Shown one piece after another: positions 11,069 through 50,988 of a stretch of DNA of 50,988 bases. The stretch comes from a virus (lineage: Duplodnaviria; Caudoviricetes). Location: positions 1 to 50,988 of IMG/VR virus record IMGVR_UViG_3300037261_000025. One strand, 5' to 3'. The position numbers were made by a program, and so were the translations under genes. The notes below the pieces were generated by a model. It did not search any database. It was given only the letters and a program-made list of their open reading frames with translations, and had not been told where the DNA came from. Each line of letters begins with the position of its first letter. Positions within the stretch are counted from its first letter, which is position 1.

Positions 11069-11227
11069 ATGGAATCAGTGAAAAAAGCGCACATCGCGCA
11101 CCTGATCCGGCTGCGTCAGGCGGACCCGGAATATGCCCGATACGCGCTCGCACAGACGCTGGCGATGGACATATGGCCGGACCTGGAAGAGTGCGTGCTG
11201 AGGGCTTGGAATGATCGAGAGAAGTAA
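11069..11227 (+). CDS. Hypothetical protein, 52 aa (not in the ORF track)
   Basis: MESVKKAHIAHLIRLRQADPEYARYAL...; its TAA lies in the R' box of attC-1. Confidence 0.65.
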   Translation: MESVKKAHIAHLIRLRQADPEYARYALAQTLAMDIWPDLEECVLRAWNDREK

Positions 11228-11293
11228 CGCCAAAAATCAGGGGGACTCCGGCGGCTTTATCGCCGGAGGCTCCCCTGGATTGCCGGGTTAGCC
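11222..11293 (-). other. attC-1 integron recombination site (72 bp)
   Basis: Minus strand: GGCTAAC-ccggc-AATCCAGG...CCTGATT-tttggc-GTTACTT; 5/6-nt spacers, extra C in L'', long imperfect hairpin. Confidence 0.85.
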
Positions 11294-11780
11294 CCGGCGC
11301 AACTACGGAGACGAACATGGAGCGATTGAAATACCCAATGAGCCATGAATGGCACGTTGCGATCAACCGGCACCACGACGGAAAGATGGGAACGCCCGAT
11401 TGGAAGCGCTGGATGTACGAAGCGAAAGCGATGGCCGACGAAGTGCCGCGCATGGCACTGGTGCTCGGCAGGGAGCGGCGCGGAGAACTCGCCAAGACGC
11501 ATAAGCAATGCTCGATGAATCCGGCGGTGCCGGTGCCAAGCAACCACCTGACGTGCTGCCTCGGCGTGAAGTGCGCGGAGTGCCCGGAACTGCTGGCGAT
11601 CGACAAGATTGAGCGGGTAACGCCCGAAGACATTGACACGGCGAAGGCATGGACGTGCGCGGCGCACATTGTTTCCAAGGGCGGCGACACGATGAACGAA
11701 GGCTACCTGCTCGACGTGAGCGACCGGATGTACTGGGACAACGTGTGCGAGAGCCTGAGCCAAGGTGATGAAGGGGCTAA
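11228..11780 (-). mobile_element. Gene cassette A (553 bp), gene inverted relative to attC
   Basis: Ends complementary over 9 nt (GTTAGCCCC 11287-11295 / GGGGCTAAC 11773-11781). Confidence 0.82.
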
Positions 11781-11787
11781 CGCTTGA
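11317..11787 (+). CDS. Cassette A cargo: Cys/His-rich hypothetical protein
   Basis: GGAG RBS; TCCLG.KC.ECP, WTC..H; stop codon lies inside attC-2. Confidence 0.8.
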   Translation: MERLKYPMSHEWHVAINRHHDGKMGTPDWKRWMYEAKAMADEVPRMALVLGRERRGELAKTHKQCSMNPAVPVPSNHLTCCLGVKCAECPELLAIDKIERVTPEDIDTAKAWTCAAHIVSKGGDTMNEGYLLDVSDRMYWDNVCESLSQGDEGANA

Positions 11788-11862
11788 ATTCAGCGACCGC
11801 GCTGAAAAATAAACTACAGCGTGCCACGCTTCGGCGCGGTTCGCTGGAATGACGGGTTAGCC
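11775..11862 (-). other. attC-2 integron recombination site (88 bp)
   Basis: Minus strand: GGCTAAC-ccgtc-ATTCCAGC-gaaccgcgc...gcgcggtc-GCTGAAT-tcaagc-GTTAGCC; extra C and extra A as in canonical attC. Confidence 0.9.
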
Positions 11863-12091
11863 GCTGCCCGCGAAACAGCGCGCAACACTTGGAGAACGTG
11901 AAATGAACTACTGTGAAGCCCTCGGCAAAATACGTGAAGCGCGAGCATTATTGCAAGACGAAGCTGCAACCCCGGCAAACACGCGGGAACTGGCTATGGC
12001 AATAACAAAGCTCGACGAAGCGATCCTCTGGCGGCAAAGCGACATGCAGAAAAAAGCGCCGGTCGTGGATGGCTGCTCCATAGGCGGCTAA
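11781..12091 (-). mobile_element. Gene cassette B (311 bp), gene inverted relative to attC
   Basis: Ends complementary over 9 nt (GTTAGCCGC 11856-11864 / GCGGCTAAC 12084-12092). Confidence 0.82.
11903..12091 (+). CDS. Cassette B cargo: Acb2/Tad1-like helical-hairpin protein (putative cyclic-nucleotide sponge)
   Basis: GGAG RBS; RELAMAITKLDEAILW resembles the RE..A.T.(L/V)EEA.(M/L)W pattern of Tad1-like proteins. Confidence 0.6.
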   Translation: MNYCEALGKIREARALLQDEAATPANTRELAMAITKLDEAILWRQSDMQKKAPVVDGCSIGG

Positions 12092-12142
12092 CGCAATGTC
12101 TAGCGCAACTGCGACATAACGTCGCCACGGCCAAGTTATAGA
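12089..12142 (-). other. attI-like cassette receptor site 1
   Basis: GTT crossover without an attC hairpin; gapless homology to 46503-46556. Confidence 0.65.
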
Positions 12143-12160
12143 TCAACTGGAGAATTTGAA

Positions 12161-17659: not shown

Positions 17660-18838
17660 TCAGGCTCTCGTGAAGACAGACAGCGCTGCGACCAGCTGAC
17701 TACCTGCATAGACAGTAGATAAGTCGGGGCTGATCGCGATACCATAACCATTGTTTGTCGAAGCTATGGTCGCCGGGGTCATCAGTGTTAGCACACTTGA
17801 TGTCAGATTTCTACTGAACTGTGATATCGTGCTCAGTGCACCGTTAACATTAAGTGAATATAGATTCAGGTTATCTCCACTGACACAAATGTTGAACGAG
17901 GTGGCTCCTGTCTGTCCGGTGGGAATAGTGGCCGGGGACAAAGCTGTCAACAGCCCGGTTGCCGGGTCCCTACCGAATTGGGATATTGTGAGTGCTGAGG
18001 TCGACGACACATACACCCCTAGTCCGTCTGGACTTATCGCAATGTCCTTGCTGTTTGTAGCCAGTGCGGTCGTTGGAGTACCCAACGCTGTCAACAAACC
18101 TGTGGAAGTATTTCTAGAGAACTGGTAAATCAGGGTGTTCGACGAGCTGACACTGTACACATGTGCCCCATCAGGGCTGACCACTAATGATTGCCCGGAG
18201 ACCCCGGAATATGAAGCTACGGAGGGTGGAACTAGTGCTGCGAGCGCTCCTGTAGTCGGATTACGAGACATCTGATAGACGCCACCAGAATACCCGCCGA
18301 AATATAAAGACAGTCCGTCCGGTGACATGCACATCTCGCGTGTGCTCGAACCTCCGGTATTCGCAGAGATGGTGCCGCCTGCCGTAAGCAATCCAGTGGC
18401 GGTATCACGGGAGAACTGCTGGATGACAAAGGCGCCGTACCCGAGGACGTAGAAGAATTTTCCATCCGGACTGATGAGGGCGCCGGATGCGATTCCAGGA
18501 CAACTGACCGTGGCGGGAGTCAGTGGGGTCAATGTACCATTGGCGGTGTTTCTTGAGAATTGCGCGACCACTGACCCTGATTCTTGGATCACATACACGA
18601 ACTTACTGTCAGGACTTACGACGATGTTCATTGGCTGCGTTCCACCAGCAACTGTAACAGTTGCTGGTGTGGCCGCAGCCAACAGACCACCATAAACTAA
18701 TGTGTGGGGCCAATTCCCCGATTTAAGATACGGAAATACTTGGCCGAGCGTCCACATCCCTGGCGCGGCACCGAGAAGCCCCCCGACAGGAATTACCGGG
18801 GTTTTTGTGATCAGGCCACCAACCCAGCGCTCAGTCAT
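17660..18838 (-). CDS. Lactonase/YncE-like beta-propeller protein (tail or receptor-binding candidate)
   Basis: Repeated SPDG..VY and QFSR..TG.LT blades. Confidence 0.82.
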   Translation of the reverse strand: MTERWVGGLITKTPVIPVGGLLGAAPGMWTLGQVFPYLKSGNWPHTLVYGGLLAAATPATVTVAGGTQPMNIVVSPDSKFVYVIQESGSVVAQFSRNTANGTLTPLTPATVSCPGIASGALISPDGKFFYVLGYGAFVIQQFSRDTATGLLTAGGTISANTGGSSTREMCMSPDGLSLYFGGYSGGVYQMSRNPTTGALAALVPPSVASYSGVSGQSLVVSPDGAHVYSVSSSNTLIYQFSRNTSTGLLTALGTPTTALATNSKDIAISPDGLGVYVSSTSALTISQFGRDPATGLLTALSPATIPTGQTGATSFNICVSGDNLNLYSLNVNGALSTISQFSRNLTSSVLTLMTPATIASTNNGYGIAISPDLSTVYAGSQLVAALSVFTRA

Positions 18839-46499: not shown

Positions 46500-46556
46500 C
46501 GCTCTATAACGTCTCCACAGACAAGTTATAGAGCGGTTGCGGTTTATATTGCGTTA
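46500..46556 (+). other. attI-like cassette receptor site 2
   Basis: cgctctataac-N14-gttatagagcg then GTTGCG...attgcG|TT; homologous to 12089-12142. Confidence 0.65.
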
Positions 46557-46976
46557 TGTGCGTTCCCACAGAATCGAGTTCCGTCCAAGCTGCACGGCCT
46601 TGGCGCATTGCACCTCGTCAAACTCGCCTATATGGGCTTCTCCCTTCCCGAGATTCATCAATACCGCGAGGTGTGAATACACCTCGTGTCTGCGTAGTCG
46701 GCCTTCGCGCCAGTAAGGGTCAATGGCCGCGTGTGCCGCTTGCTTCGCCGTTCTCAGTTGCGCGTTTGCCAGCCTACCGAGTGGTCTGGTGCCGTCGCCG
46801 TAGCCGTTGCCTGCTTTGTGGCATCCAACGTAAGCACCACATGGCACACAGCGCCAAAACCTCAAGGCTTCAAGGTCTGGGCGGTGCGGGTAAATGTCTG
46901 CGCCCGTTGCCAGTACCGCAGGCGTTCCGCAGTAGTGGCACATAACAGGTCGCTCAATCTGATTCACTTCGTTCAC
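46554..46976 (-). CDS. Cassette C cargo: zinc-finger protein (DUF3268-like)
   Basis: C.YCG...IYPHR.DL...C..C.AYVGCH...PLG.LAN..LR..K..AH...DP.W...HIG.FD...C. Confidence 0.8.
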   Translation of the reverse strand: MNEVNQIERPVMCHYCGTPAVLATGADIYPHRPDLEALRFWRCVPCGAYVGCHKAGNGYGDGTRPLGRLANAQLRTAKQAAHAAIDPYWREGRLRRHEVYSHLAVLMNLGKGEAHIGEFDEVQCAKAVQLGRNSILWERT

Positions 46977-46991
46977 AGCTTATCTCCAGCG
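46554..46991 (+). mobile_element. Gene cassette C (438 bp), gene inverted relative to attC
   Basis: GTTATGTGC 46553-46561 complementary to GCACATAAC 46938-46946. Confidence 0.75.
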
Positions 46992-46997
46992 TTAGAT
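46940..46997 (+). other. attC-3 (58 bp, partly degenerate)
   Basis: ACATAAC-aggtc-GCTCAATC-tgattcacttcgttcaca-GCTTATC-tccagc-GTTAGAT; two L-box mismatches. Confidence 0.7.
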
Positions 46998-47007
46998 CGC
47001 ATAATCT

Positions 47008-47346
47008 TCATGCCAAAATACAAATTCCCGCCAGCAGCACAATGCACACAGCGAAAGTCCCGATAGTCCAAGCTGAGTCTTTCCAGTGCCATGCTGTGTC
47101 CTCGTCCAACTCGTCATCCATCGTGATAGGCATCGGTGATTCGTCGCGGGTTGTAAGGTTTTGCTCCAGCTTCCAATGCTTTGATAGCTCTACACAAAGT
47201 TTCTGGCCAATCGGAGTTAGCGTATGCATCATGGGTGGCCTTGGCGCTTGCGTGCTGGATGCGTACTCTTCATCCGCGCAGCAGGTGCAGTCGCGGCCTT
47301 GCCGACAATTTCCTAGACATGGGCTATTAAACATGGGTTCTTCCAA
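47008..47346 (-). CDS. Hypothetical protein with C-terminal TM
   Basis: C.GNC.QGR.C; C-terminal hydrophobic helix; start uncertain. Confidence 0.6.
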   Translation of the reverse strand: MEEPMFNSPCLGNCRQGRDCTCCADEEYASSTQAPRPPMMHTLTPIGQKLCVELSKHWKLEQNLTTRDESPMPITMDDELDEDTAWHWKDSAWTIGTFAVCIVLLAGICILA

Positions 47347-47399
47347 TGGTTGGCGCGCAGCAGCGGGGTCTAGGGTGCTGCGCGTTGGTCCCGAAAAAA

Positions 47400-49118
47400 T
47401 TAGGCGGCCTGTTTGATCTGGATAGCCTGGATATGAGACACGAGGCGCATGCAGATCATCGGGAAGTCGCTCTCTCGAAAGAGCTTCGCGTTGCGCTCAG
47501 TGGTCGCATCGAATCCCAGGTTCGATAGGAATTCGGCGGAAAGCGAAAAGCCAAGGCGCTCTGCGATCTGTCCTAGTTTCAGAGTCGGAGCGGATTGCGT
47601 CATCGCTTTTGCAACCGGTGTCGGCATGATTGCAACCACTTCGGCGAACGTCACAGCGCTGGCTACAGACTGCGCTGGCGCTGGTGTCGGTACTACCACG
47701 GCTTGGGCCGCTGTAATCGCATCCTGGACCTTCTTTTCGGCATCGGCCCGCGCCGCCGTCTCACGCTCGATCTTCGCAAGCTCTTCGGCACGGATCGCGG
47801 CGCGCTGGGCTTCTTCTTTGCGCTGCACCTCGGCCTGGTGCTCGGCGATGCGCGACTTCACCAGCATGTTCAGGTCATCAGGTGCCTTCTGCACGATCGT
47901 TCCGGTATCGGCGAACAAGAACGCGTGATCCTTCGCCAGCTCACGCAGCGTGCCGAGATTGATCTGGATTTTGTCGGCCACGGCATTGGCTTCGATCTTG
48001 CAGCGCGCCAGCTCAGTGGCCACTTTGTCGCGCATGCTGTCGATACTTTTCAAGCCCTTGACCACGGTCTGAAACTCGGTCTGAATAGTAGGCAAGTATG
48101 GTTTTCCAAGGCGCTCGTTCAGGCCGCGCATGTGCGTGATAAATTCCGCTGAAGCGTCTCCGATGATCTTGGTGCGGCGGTTTTCCTTTTCCACCTTGAC
48201 GAGCTTTTCCACCAGCAGCCGGTTGGTGCGCGCCGTCTCGCGGTACAGGCCCACGGTGCGGCGCATGCTGTCGATACTCTCGGTCTGAGCCAGAGCGCCG
48301 TTCTCGGCTGCGTCCAGCGCTTCCTCGGCGGTCTTGAGCGTCTTCACCGTTGCTTCGAGGTCCGCGAAGTCTTGATCGGTTTCTGGCGTCTTGTTGATTC
48401 GGTTGACGTAGGCCGTCAGTGCCGTGCCGAAGGCTTCTAGGTTGTCCACAAGAGCGATAGAACCGTTGACTTGTATCGAGACGGAAGGCAGCGACATTTG
48501 CGGCTTGGAGACTGGAGCCAGAACGACTTCGGCGGGAATGTAGGCGGCTAGGTCTTTGGCGAATTGATGCCAGCCTGCAATCAGCGCATCGCGGCGTTCT
48601 GGTCGAGACTGATACCAGACACCACGGGTGTTTTCTTCGGTGCCGTCCGATGTGGTGAAGTACGCCTCAGATCCACCGCACACTAGTATCTGTTGTTCAA
48701 GTTGCCAATAGTAATGCGGCTCAAGTTCGCCAGAATTTATGGCCTCGACAAGCAATGCGTTCCATAGCTTATTTTCCCACGGCCTGGATTCGTCCATCGT
48801 CAGGCCGTCAAAGCTCGCCAGAAGCGGCAGTCCATTGATGTTCAATGTTCCTGTGCATGGATATAGTTCTTCGCCGAAATATTTTTCGACGATTGGACGG
48901 GCGGCAGCTTCGGCGGCGTGGCCAGCGTAGAACAAGCGCTGTTTCGCTGGGTCGATTTCCGCATCAACGATACGCTCTGCCTTTGCTTTCAGCAGGGCGG
49001 ACCGTGTTTGATATTTACTCACTCCCATCATGGCCGGTGCTTCGCTGGCCGTGAAGTGGTCTGCGCGGATTGCCATCCACTTGGCGCTTCCTTGATGTAC
49101 GTTGCTCAATGTTTCCAT
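47400..49118 (-). CDS. YqaJ-like (lambda Exo family) exonuclease with long coiled-coil extension
   Basis: QGS..W..IR...TASEA..MMG.S.Y, GH..E, ASFDG, WENK, YYWQ..QQ. Confidence 0.88.
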   Translation of the reverse strand: METLSNVHQGSAKWMAIRADHFTASEAPAMMGVSKYQTRSALLKAKAERIVDAEIDPAKQRLFYAGHAAEAAARPIVEKYFGEELYPCTGTLNINGLPLLASFDGLTMDESRPWENKLWNALLVEAINSGELEPHYYWQLEQQILVCGGSEAYFTTSDGTEENTRGVWYQSRPERRDALIAGWHQFAKDLAAYIPAEVVLAPVSKPQMSLPSVSIQVNGSIALVDNLEAFGTALTAYVNRINKTPETDQDFADLEATVKTLKTAEEALDAAENGALAQTESIDSMRRTVGLYRETARTNRLLVEKLVKVEKENRRTKIIGDASAEFITHMRGLNERLGKPYLPTIQTEFQTVVKGLKSIDSMRDKVATELARCKIEANAVADKIQINLGTLRELAKDHAFLFADTGTIVQKAPDDLNMLVKSRIAEHQAEVQRKEEAQRAAIRAEELAKIERETAARADAEKKVQDAITAAQAVVVPTPAPAQSVASAVTFAEVVAIMPTPVAKAMTQSAPTLKLGQIAERLGFSLSAEFLSNLGFDATTERNAKLFRESDFPMICMRLVSHIQAIQIKQAA

Positions 49119-49120
49119 TT

Positions 49121-49876
49121 TCAAGACTCCATATCGATTGTTGATTCACTGGCCCGAACCATGGCGATCTGTTCTTCGCTCATGATGGCTTTGCTTGACA
49201 CCATGGCGATGATCTGTTCAGCACTCTTTCGTCCTGAATTGATCAGTCCGCGCCAGATGCAGAGATTCTTTTGGAACGCTTCATCGGAGTAGTTTGGAAG
49301 TGCTGCCGTCGCTGCGAGCTTCGCGATGATCTCGCCGGTCGATGGGTCGATGGTCTTTGACGGCGCGGTATTCTCAATAATCCGCTCGGCTTCGTCAACG
49401 TCATAGATTCCGCCAAAACCAAACGCGATACGAGCGCACTGAATCATTGCTTTGTGGCGCAGCATTCGGTATGGGTGACTATCCCAAGGCTTCACTCCTG
49501 GTCGCCTGCATTCGGCCATCCACTCCGTTAGCTTTGTCGGGTGAGTACGGTCTTTACGGTAGATCGTGCAGGTGCATGAATCGGCGGTTTGCTCAAAATC
49601 CATTCCATCAAATTGAGGGTTTGTGTTAATGATTCGACTCCATCCGTCAACTCCAACAACCGGGACGATGCCGCCTTTGTCCGGAAACGCATAAATTTCC
49701 TTGGTCCAAGGGTTCAGCTTGTATTGCCCGGCGACGATTAGCAGTGCGGACAACTGAGCGTCTGTCACATCTCCCTTGAAGGCAGTTGACTTGAGTACCT
49801 GATAAAGCTCTTCGCTCTTTGGAAGATCAAAACGAGTAGCAAGCTCGTTGATCTGTGTGGTGATTAGATTGCTCAT
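49121..49876 (-). CDS. bet: Red-beta (Bet) single-strand annealing protein
   Basis: QY.LNPWTKEIYAFPDKGGIVPVVGVDGW.RIIN, HP.RMLRHKA.IQCAR.AFGF.GIYD.DEAERI. Confidence 0.92.
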   Translation of the reverse strand: MSNLITTQINELATRFDLPKSEELYQVLKSTAFKGDVTDAQLSALLIVAGQYKLNPWTKEIYAFPDKGGIVPVVGVDGWSRIINTNPQFDGMDFEQTADSCTCTIYRKDRTHPTKLTEWMAECRRPGVKPWDSHPYRMLRHKAMIQCARIAFGFGGIYDVDEAERIIENTAPSKTIDPSTGEIIAKLAATAALPNYSDEAFQKNLCIWRGLINSGRKSAEQIIAMVSSKAIMSEEQIAMVRASESTIDMES

Positions 49877-50716: not shown

Positions 50717-50988
50717 TTACTCCGAAATCAAGTCGCTGATGGCGATTACTGAAGAGCGTTCTTCGTCTGTTATTTCGCAATCATCAATGTCGCCGCGCAC
50801 GCCGGTCAGGTCGCCGCGCACGCCGGTCAGGTCGCCGCGCACGCCGGTCAGGTCGCCGCTCACGCCGGTCAGGTTGCCGCTCACGTTGCTCAGGTCGCCG
50901 CGCACGCCGGTCAGGTCGCCGCGCACGCCGGTCAGGTCGCCGCTCACGCCGGTCAGGTTGCCGCTCACGTTGCTCAGGTCGCCGCGCA
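50717..50988 (-). CDS. Heptapeptide-repeat protein, 3' part (joins 240..1)
   Basis: GDLTGVR/GNLTGVS repeats, then DDCEITDEERSSVIAISDLISE*. Confidence 0.85.
   Translation of the reverse strand, partial: RGDLSNVSGNLTGVSGDLTGVRGDLTGVRGDLSNVSGNLTGVSGDLTGVRGDLTGVRGDLTGVRGDIDDCEITDEERSSVIAISDLISE
50789..50988 (-). repeat. 21-nt coding tandem repeat (continuation of 1-171)
   Basis: Same unit as at the window start. Confidence 0.95.

Follow-up and report, generated by a model that had tools for sequence, protein, structure and literature searches.

Introduction

The attC sites of integron cassettes are usually treated as non-coding structures that serve the integrase, and cassettes lying the wrong way round as silent unless they bring a promoter with them. 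The attC families of chromosomal integrons, for example the Vibrio repeats, are near-identical and species-specific and form long arrays beside the integrase, with the open reading frames (ORFs) on the top strand. Here we report on a site at positions 46931-47004 (minus strand) of the tailed-phage genome IMGVR_UViG_3300037261_000025, which belongs to the family of the attC sites of aadA cassettes and whose opposite, sense strand holds the ribosome-binding site (RBS) and the predicted start codon of an inverted gene for a DUF3268 zinc-finger protein. The stretch analysed, in the following referred to as the window, is the entire virus record of 50,988 bp, with a CheckV completeness of 100%. The relatives of this site share with the Vibrio repeats the near-identical, sharp-edged copies between unrelated ORFs, and are unlike them with respect to the length of the arrays, the adjacent integrase and the strand of the ORFs.

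Integrons or integrase-less clusters of attC sites (CALINs) have been described in 21 phages in the main text of Qi et al. 2023 (PMC9892861), according to which IntI1 recombined five of six phage attCs; attC-aadA7 serves there as a benchmark. As in the phage CALINs of that report, which occur in virulent and temperate phages and have methyltransferases among their cargo, the attCs studied here lack an integrase, and methyltransferases are found beside copies of the site here too. Unlike the present case, the text of that report is silent on an RBS, start codon or N-terminus encoded by an attC and on ORFs lying uniformly on the bottom strand, while its supplementary tables may list related phages. 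Initiation of translation from within a recombination site is described for attI1 in the text of PMC8876359, where ORF-11 consists of a site-encoded GGAG, an ATG and an ORF of 11 codons and drives the translation of cassettes without an initiation region of their own. ORF-11, ORF-17 and ORF-18 of attI1 resemble the site in the window in that a GGAG is followed, a few bases on, by the start codon of an ORF of about 11 codons, and the product is sometimes a fusion; they differ in belonging to an attI, in lying on the top strand and in serving the first cassette only, whereas here an attC, its bottom strand and many cargos are concerned. In the literature searched, which did not extend to the supplements of Qi et al., we found no description of an attC in which an inverted ORF has its start. 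Thus attCs in phages were already reported in 2023, and the start-encoding type appears to be a new variant.

Results

Relationship of the site to the aadA attCs

A covariance model (R2) was built from five plasmid aadA attCs only, with the structure taken from the fold of the aadA2 attC, and the whole window was searched with it on both strands without filters. The site at 46931-47004 was the second-best match in the window (25.0 bits, rough E-value 4.8e-4) and scored on the minus strand only; the best was 11776-11862 on the plus strand (31.4 bits, E 9.5e-6) and the third 11225-11290, also on the plus strand (13.2 bits, E 0.64), with nothing further below an E-value of 2. In the alignment 16 of the 22 model pairs form, and the six broken ones comprise one in the R box, two in the L boxes, in agreement with the two L-box mismatches claimed in an earlier, sequence-only reading, and three in the inner stem, while both single-base bulges lie at the positions expected by the model. 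Applied to 21 related loci, R2 returned 40 rows which reduce to 30 distinct places, since ten of them represent the same place in overlapping loci. A second model (R1), built from 16 of the related copies described below, scored the site at 79 bits, the next match in the window reaching 10.3 bits, and identified 32 places at E<=1 across 15 viral records, with clusters of three to four copies within 0.8-1.8 kb in four records (G004, G005, G007 and G012). The weaker R1 matches are strong imperfect palindromes with the same ends, reaching up to -20.0 kcal/mol, and are referred to as hairpin-type copies, as opposed to the leader type to which the site in the window belongs.

One array copy (L112:700-772) is 77-82% identical over 63-70 nt to stretches in at least 5000 plasmids. 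In all five plasmid records inspected, the match lies directly 3' of the stop codon of an aadA gene (aadA2, aadA13, aadA25, aadA7 and aadA11) and on the opposite strand; in one of them it is located between intI1-aadA2 and qacEdelta1-sul1. From what is established about class 1 integrons, and from the use of attC-aadA7 as a benchmark by Qi et al. 2023, we take this stretch to be the attC of the respective cassette. The site in the window shares with the aadA attCs (59-base elements) the AAC and GTT core ends, the 5-nt unpaired spacers, the L boxes, the two bulges and the GAA loop. It differs from them in the reduced number of pairs and a weak fold (see below), in the absence of an integrase or attI nearby and in its ORF, which has its start within the site and belongs to the bottom strand, whereas the aadA ORF is on the top strand and ends before the site.

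The polarity follows from the same alignments, as in five of five plasmid examples the strand that aligns with the sense strand of the phage is antisense to aadA, that is, the bottom strand of the attC. For each site of the window, a score was obtained on a single strand, which is the sense strand of the respective operon; the cargo is therefore inverted compared to normal cassettes, as the sequence-only reading had proposed. By the rules of integrons the cassette comprises 46554-46991, the same block that is shared with the metagenome contig L011. An alternative crossover at the gene-proximal end of the element, which would make the site the attC of the cassette upstream, was rejected after the polarity had become clear from the aadA alignment. 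A single attC-like match (L113 63-120, minus strand, in G008) lies on the strand opposite to the leader copy of its record, 6 kb away. As judged from the sequences, the identity as an attC is supported by the R2 score, the chain of homology to the aadA attCs and the polarity.

Architecture of the site and start of translation

The minus (sense) strand of 46931-47004 corresponds to the bottom strand of the attC, with a conserved core at 46943-46997. At its outer end the R' core GTTAGAT (46991-46997, plus strand) fits the consensus GTTRRRY, and homology with L011 stops here; the canonical G|TT crossover would fall at 46991|46992. At the other end GCACATAAC (46938-46946, plus strand) includes the R'' core ACATAAC, where homology with the related locus L002 begins. 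On the minus strand, a Shine-Dalgarno GGAG (46984-46987) lies 7 nt ahead of a GTG codon (46974-46976) within the L''/variable part of the attC, which opens a series of eleven attC-encoded codons (46944-46976; the start codon followed by NEVNQIERPV) in frame with the DUF3268 body. The gene (46554-46976, minus strand, 140 aa) matches Pfam PF11672 (E 1.1e-29, 103.7 bits at a gathering cut-off of 28.4) and phrog_1934 (E 5e-43), and its TAA stop (46556-46554) is part of GTTATGTGC (46553-46561, plus strand), the left G|TT boundary of the cassette, at which homology with both L011 and L002 ends. GTTATGTGC and GCACATAAC form an exact inverted repeat of 9 bp. Inspection of the sequence located every string listed in the sequence-only reading, including an alternative in-frame ATG at 46943-46941 (minus strand), which is created by the A at a Y position of the R'' core.

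Several lines of evidence point to GTG 46976 as the position at which translation of the DUF3268 gene would start. GGAG, a spacer of 6-7 nt, a start codon and an open frame are present in 17 of 17 leader copies, a count that is selected as far as GGAG and spacer are concerned, as both were required by the search pattern. The start codon is GTG in 11 and ATG in six copies; in L011, ATG takes the place of the GTG of the window at the same GGAG and spacing. The encoded N-terminus follows M-[SN]-E-[AVT]-N-x-[IV]-[ED]-R-P-V in the 17 copies. In three leader copies, representing two kinds of cargo, no methionine occurs downstream of the leader, and the start must therefore be the codon of the leader itself. 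The close protein relatives P0004 and P0006 have likewise retained an 11-residue extension, with no internal methionine. The element furthermore contains stops in two frames, which are positioned just ahead of or overlapping its start codon.

Distribution of the leader-type element

The element of about 55 nt corresponding to 46943-46997 was found in 17 copies in 16 records, namely the window, 14 viral records whose copies stem from pattern scans, and the metagenome contig L011; the window holds no further leader copy. When the copies are aligned with their flanks, conservation begins and ends abruptly at both core ends, and the AAC and GTT ends are present in 15 of 16 aligned copies. The cargos of at least 25 aa downstream of the leader fall into seven unrelated clusters, comprising DUF3268, a phrog_12600 protein, two different 83-aa proteins, a 128-aa protein, a Cys-rich protein and the N-terminus of a methyltransferase; in three more cases the cargo is cut by the ends of the contig, consists of a tail of 22 residues, or is a free-standing leader ORF of 12 codons. 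The latter (L086 2998-3036, minus strand) ends in TAA, with the next ATG 11 nt on, and resides in a phage record that is 94% complete; it represents a natural uncoupled form of the module. The leader copies lie in co-directional early operons together with RecT, YqaJ, AlpA, NinX, dNMP kinases and several DNA methyltransferases. A C5 methylase is encoded just upstream of the site in L094 and three N6/N4 methylase ORFs are present in L104, while in L088 the leader is fused to the N-terminus of a methylase that stops after 36 residues. The sequence-only reading had regarded the gene as a domesticated cassette; the pairing of attC and gene is borne out, a one-off domestication is not, as the element is a widespread subfamily.

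Two loci delimit the shared block. The DUF3268 protein of L011 is 90% identical to that of the window, and the homologous DNA is delimited by two TAAC motifs, one marking the outer end of the site and the other lying at the stop of the gene. A degenerate second copy of the element (L011 457-526, plus strand; R1 12.4 bits, R2 15.8 bits) directly follows the DUF3268 stop, and this order of site, gene and site remnant is the one that insertion of a circle through recombination of two sites would leave behind. In L002 (91% identical) the DUF3268 body is present without the leader, and homology starts exactly at the R'' core and ends at the stop codon. In this locus, a hairpin-type site (L002 2277-2349, plus strand; R2 24.7 bits) ends in the ATG that opens a frame of 187 aa (2339-2902), in which the DUF3268 body is preceded by about 57 additional codons, an Ala-Ala-Leu repeat among them. 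With both L011 and L002, homology ends at the core sites, which together with the site remnant in L011 would be indirect evidence of recombination by an integron integrase at G|TT. In DUF3268 homologues at a greater distance, the flanks show ordinary Shine-Dalgarno sequences. A BLAST search of phage genomes with the region yielded only one distant DUF3268 gene, a pattern fusing the leader to the DUF3268 body gave no match in viral contigs, and R1 gave one weak match in five bacterial genomes bearing DUF3268 homologues.

Constraint on the structure and strength of the fold

RNAalifold predicted a weak consensus hairpin with clear compensatory change for 16 copies. The base that precedes the start codon pairs with the second base of codon 6, as A-U in seven copies, U-A in six, G-C in two and C-G in one, none being broken; two more pairs close the GAA loop, and of the six pairs that make up the inner helix, three show compensatory changes. 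In the named structure 97.3% of the cells pair, compared to 90.0% in shuffles (0 of 500 reaching the observed value) and 26-41% with the partners slid, figures that overstate independence because the structure was derived from these same related sequences.

When folded as DNA, the site of the window reaches -3.4 kcal/mol (z 0.4) and is the weakest of nine leader copies, which range from -3.4 to -9.4 kcal/mol; in the strongest of these (L107:2957-3017, -9.4 kcal/mol) the minimum-free-energy fold has the overall shape of an attC. Hairpin-type copies range from -5.1 to -20.0 kcal/mol, and the aadA2 attC folds at -19.4 kcal/mol. The other two R2 matches in the window have energies of -27.4 kcal/mol (11776-11862, z -5.0) and -19.2 kcal/mol (11225-11290, z -3.6).

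Integrase genes

Neither the integron integrase model TIGR02249 nor, at E<=1, PF00589 had any match in the window, and PHROG annotation of 51 further ORFs of the window revealed no tyrosine recombinase. The combination of intI and attI beside the array that marks a complete integron is thus absent from the window. An integron integrase above the cut-off was found in one of 15 related viral records, the record of L011 being left out of this count. It is encoded in G001 (L092) at C1:11907-12848 (TIGR02249, 454 bits at a cut-off of 265), at the end of the contig, 1.7 kb from the leader gene and on the same strand, with intervening ORFs that overlap by 4 nt. The G001 record is 12.9 kb long and about 16% complete, and the attI side lies beyond the contig.

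Genes and further elements of the window

The region from 42 to 51 kb of the window is a single early/packaging operon on the minus strand. It includes RecT (49121-49876), a RecE-like YqaJ nuclease (47400-49124) and an ORF of 112 aa with a hydrophobic C-terminus (47008-47346), which matched no Pfam or PHROG family and whose stop lies 31 nt ahead of the GTG. The DUF3268 gene is followed by a 96-aa ORF, NinB, an HNH protein and the small and large terminase subunits. Between the RecE-like stop and the start of the 112-aa ORF lies a strong palindrome (47326-47385, about -16.7 kcal/mol as DNA), which neither R1 nor R2 matched. An ORF of tandem repeats of seven residues (GDLTGVR/S-like; 50717-50988, minus strand) continues past the end of the record, and a perfect 13-bp inverted repeat with a gap of 1 nt in the structural-gene region (18643-18669) is the most stable 60-nt fold of the genome (-24.8 kcal/mol).

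A second mini-array, Array 1, lies on the plus strand at 11069-12160 in the order 52-aa ORF, hairpin 11225-11290, 156-aa ORF, site 11776-11862, 62-aa ORF, an element termed X (12089-12141) and 219-aa ORF. The site 11776-11862 (plus strand) is a canonical attC-like site and probably the attC-2 of the sequence-only reading, and the TGA of the 156-aa ORF lies inside it; the hairpin (11225-11290, plus strand) is the weaker attC-like attC-1. After each site, the cargo genes of Array 1 have a GGAG and ATG of their own. Another X element, of about 54 nt (46502-46556, minus strand), lies at the matching end of the DUF3268 array and is identical to its plus-strand paralogue in 48 of 77 columns without gaps. 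It includes a hairpin (46500-46535) which as a repeat is unique in the window and which none of 200 shuffles matched in folding (z -5.3). This is the site that had been labelled attI-like; the hairpin is real, and the label is not supported, even though the paralogue lies at the same end of Array 1: the phage has no integrase, neither R1 nor R2 matched the X element, and similarity to the attI1 region of class 1 integrons was absent, with 29-98 of 300 shuffles scoring as well. No copies of X were found in the other loci fetched from relatives, and scans for promoters, terminators and Rfam families gave nothing at the hairpin or at 46931-47004.

Discussion

Family membership, polarity, the geometry of RBS and start codon, the sharing of the module by unrelated cargos and the weak fold are direct results of the comparisons above. 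Taking these together, we consider it likely that 46943-46997 is an integron-type attC of the aadA family, the inner part of which has been remodelled as a translation initiation region, in a cluster of a phage without an integrase. The site would sit in a small CALIN-like cluster with its bottom strand representing the sense strand of the early operon. Translation would be directed by the GGAG and the start codon 6-7 nt on, followed by ten codons that lead to the R'' core; since the cargo ORF continues in frame from the codons of the site, the DUF3268 protein would gain a site-encoded N-terminus of 11 residues. The element appears to have retained the landmarks of an attC, namely AAC/GTT ends, unpaired spacers, two single-base bulges and the GAA loop, with a pairing that is much weaker than in canonical sites. 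Past movement of the cassette at G|TT might be attributed to a host integron integrase acting in trans or to homologous exchange between repeats, for which RecT and the RecE-like nuclease encoded next door could be used, and the present-day efficiency of recombination would be reduced. The sequence-only reading had made its case dependent on the score of an attC model and on the flanks of homologous genes; the score is well above background and homologues with such flanks exist, and its central claim, an attC-family site whose opposite strand gives RBS and start codon to an inverted gene, was upheld.

A number of observations weigh against this interpretation. As to the means of movement, the phage has no integron integrase and one was detected in just one of the 15 related viral records. 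In contrast to normal cassettes, all ORFs are located on the bottom strand of the attC, and instead of an ORF on the top strand with the site 3' of it, the ORF starts inside the site. R2 is narrow, being derived from five closely related attCs with an effective number of 1.53, and its E-values are rough. The attC label of the stretch following aadA does not come from annotation, as the PLSDB tables list no attC features. Direct BLAST of the site against plasmids gave matches at chance level (E >= 2), so that the link to known attCs requires a profile or an intermediate copy; the same search with 11776-11862 gave chance-level matches only. The leader pattern was found in none of 401 sampled bacterial genomes, which represent one class. 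The R'' core keeps AAC and departs from RYYYAAC at one position. The pairing counts were made on the related copies that yielded the structure. As single-stranded DNA, the site does not form a stable fold as an attC would, with energies of -3.4 and -0.8 kcal/mol (z -0.02 and +1.29); 90.6% of 3396 genome windows of 60 nt fold at least as well, and versions of 60 and 78 nt folded as DNA and RNA were at background. Finally, the motifs are not enriched: GTTRRRY occurs 74 times in the window compared to 83.7 +/- 10 in shuffles, core pairs at the attC spacing of 40-140 nt occur six times compared to 6.7, and exact inverted repeats of 9 bp at distances of 100-600 nt are frequent (150, with 123 +/- 15 simulated). 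The motifs taken singly are thus at chance level; the site as a whole is far from chance.

Two alternatives accept the origin from an attC and disagree on the present state of the site, and we regard each as possible and clearly less probable than the interpretation given above. According to the first, the element is no longer a substrate of an integrase and has become an intercistronic linker, that is, a portable module for RBS, start codon and translational coupling which also provides a patch of homology of about 55 bp for shuffling of the RecT/RecE type. Genes for RecT and a RecE-like nuclease lie a short distance upstream in the window and also near the leader copies of L086 and L087, integrase genes are as scarce as stated, and all ORFs are inverted relative to the polarity of cassettes. 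The stops in two frames before or overlapping the start codon are positioned as in a coupling device, the start codon is part of a small covarying helix, and the leader copies fold weakly throughout. Against a mere linker stands the conservation of canonical landmarks, including both single-base bulges, which are relevant to recognition by the integrase only. In addition, hairpin-type copies of the same arrays fold like the aadA2 attC, and the junctions are found at the core sites instead of being scattered within the repeat. Phage-borne attCs are, moreover, recombined by IntI1 in trans according to the main text of Qi et al. 2023 (PMC9892861).

The second alternative, to which we likewise assign a minor share, holds that the leader-type site has kept the full competence of an attC and is not decaying, so that coding and recombination uses coexist. 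A near-identical variant is found ahead of at least seven unrelated cargo families in 16 records, compensatory changes preserve the inner helix, bulges and spacers are retained, and some leader copies, such as L107:2957-3017, fold in the shape of an attC. The copy of the window, on the other hand, is the weakest of the nine that were folded, six of its 22 model pairs are broken, and the same phage has two sites of far higher stability (-27.4 and -19.2 kcal/mol). The weak fold fits reduced recombination, and it is the sole basis for the earlier proposal that the site may be losing its ability to recombine. The spread over many cargos and the covariation that has been kept argue that the variant is, or recently was, functional as a unit, and the site of the window may therefore still move.

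It is improbable that the 11 residues function as an N-terminal tag, for example for targeting or degradation, and that the function of the protein explains the conservation. All 17 leader copies have an open frame, and among their differences there are synonymous and conservative ones (S AGC/AGT, E GAA/GAG, I/V, A/T/V). Residue 6, however, is Q, R, L or T and follows the base before the start codon by base pairing instead of residue type, the leader of L086 stands alone as an ORF of 12 codons, and no such peptide is encoded in the hairpin-type relatives. Our initial reading was that of an ordinary phage gene whose RBS is equally ordinary, with attC-like strings arising by chance; motif counts at chance level, the common 9-bp inverted repeats, a fold at background, the missing integrase and the ordinary Shine-Dalgarno flanks of other DUF3268 homologues had spoken in its favour. 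This reading is overturned by the R2 score of the site, the 17 sharp-edged copies before unrelated genes, the arrays of hairpin relatives found with R1 and the match to the aadA attCs, and is highly improbable.

Starting from the preferred interpretation of a remodelled attC, it might be speculated, as a tentative extension that we hold to be rather doubtful, that these phages run a cassette system of their own on upside-down attCs, with one variant serving as a portable start module, exchange occurring via a host integrase in trans or via RecT/RecE, and the X elements acting as docking sites. As the bottom strand is the sense strand, the cassettes would be read from the early promoters of the phage. 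The start module, consisting of RBS, start codon and 11 codons, would allow an ORF without promoter and RBS to be expressed anywhere, and cassettes could be traded between co-infecting phages and host integrons.

If the interpretation of the site is correct, annotation pipelines will assign wrong starts to such genes, and such sites may escape attC finders that are tuned to stable hairpins. A conserved variant of attC would hold a second code, for RBS, start codon and N-terminus, on the recombinogenic strand, so that a single sequence of 55 nt would be under a natural dual constraint from folding of the DNA and from translation. Such sites might offer a handle on the question of how ORFs and attCs are joined, which is an open problem of cassette genesis, and could provide a concrete route for the trade of genes between phages and integrons.

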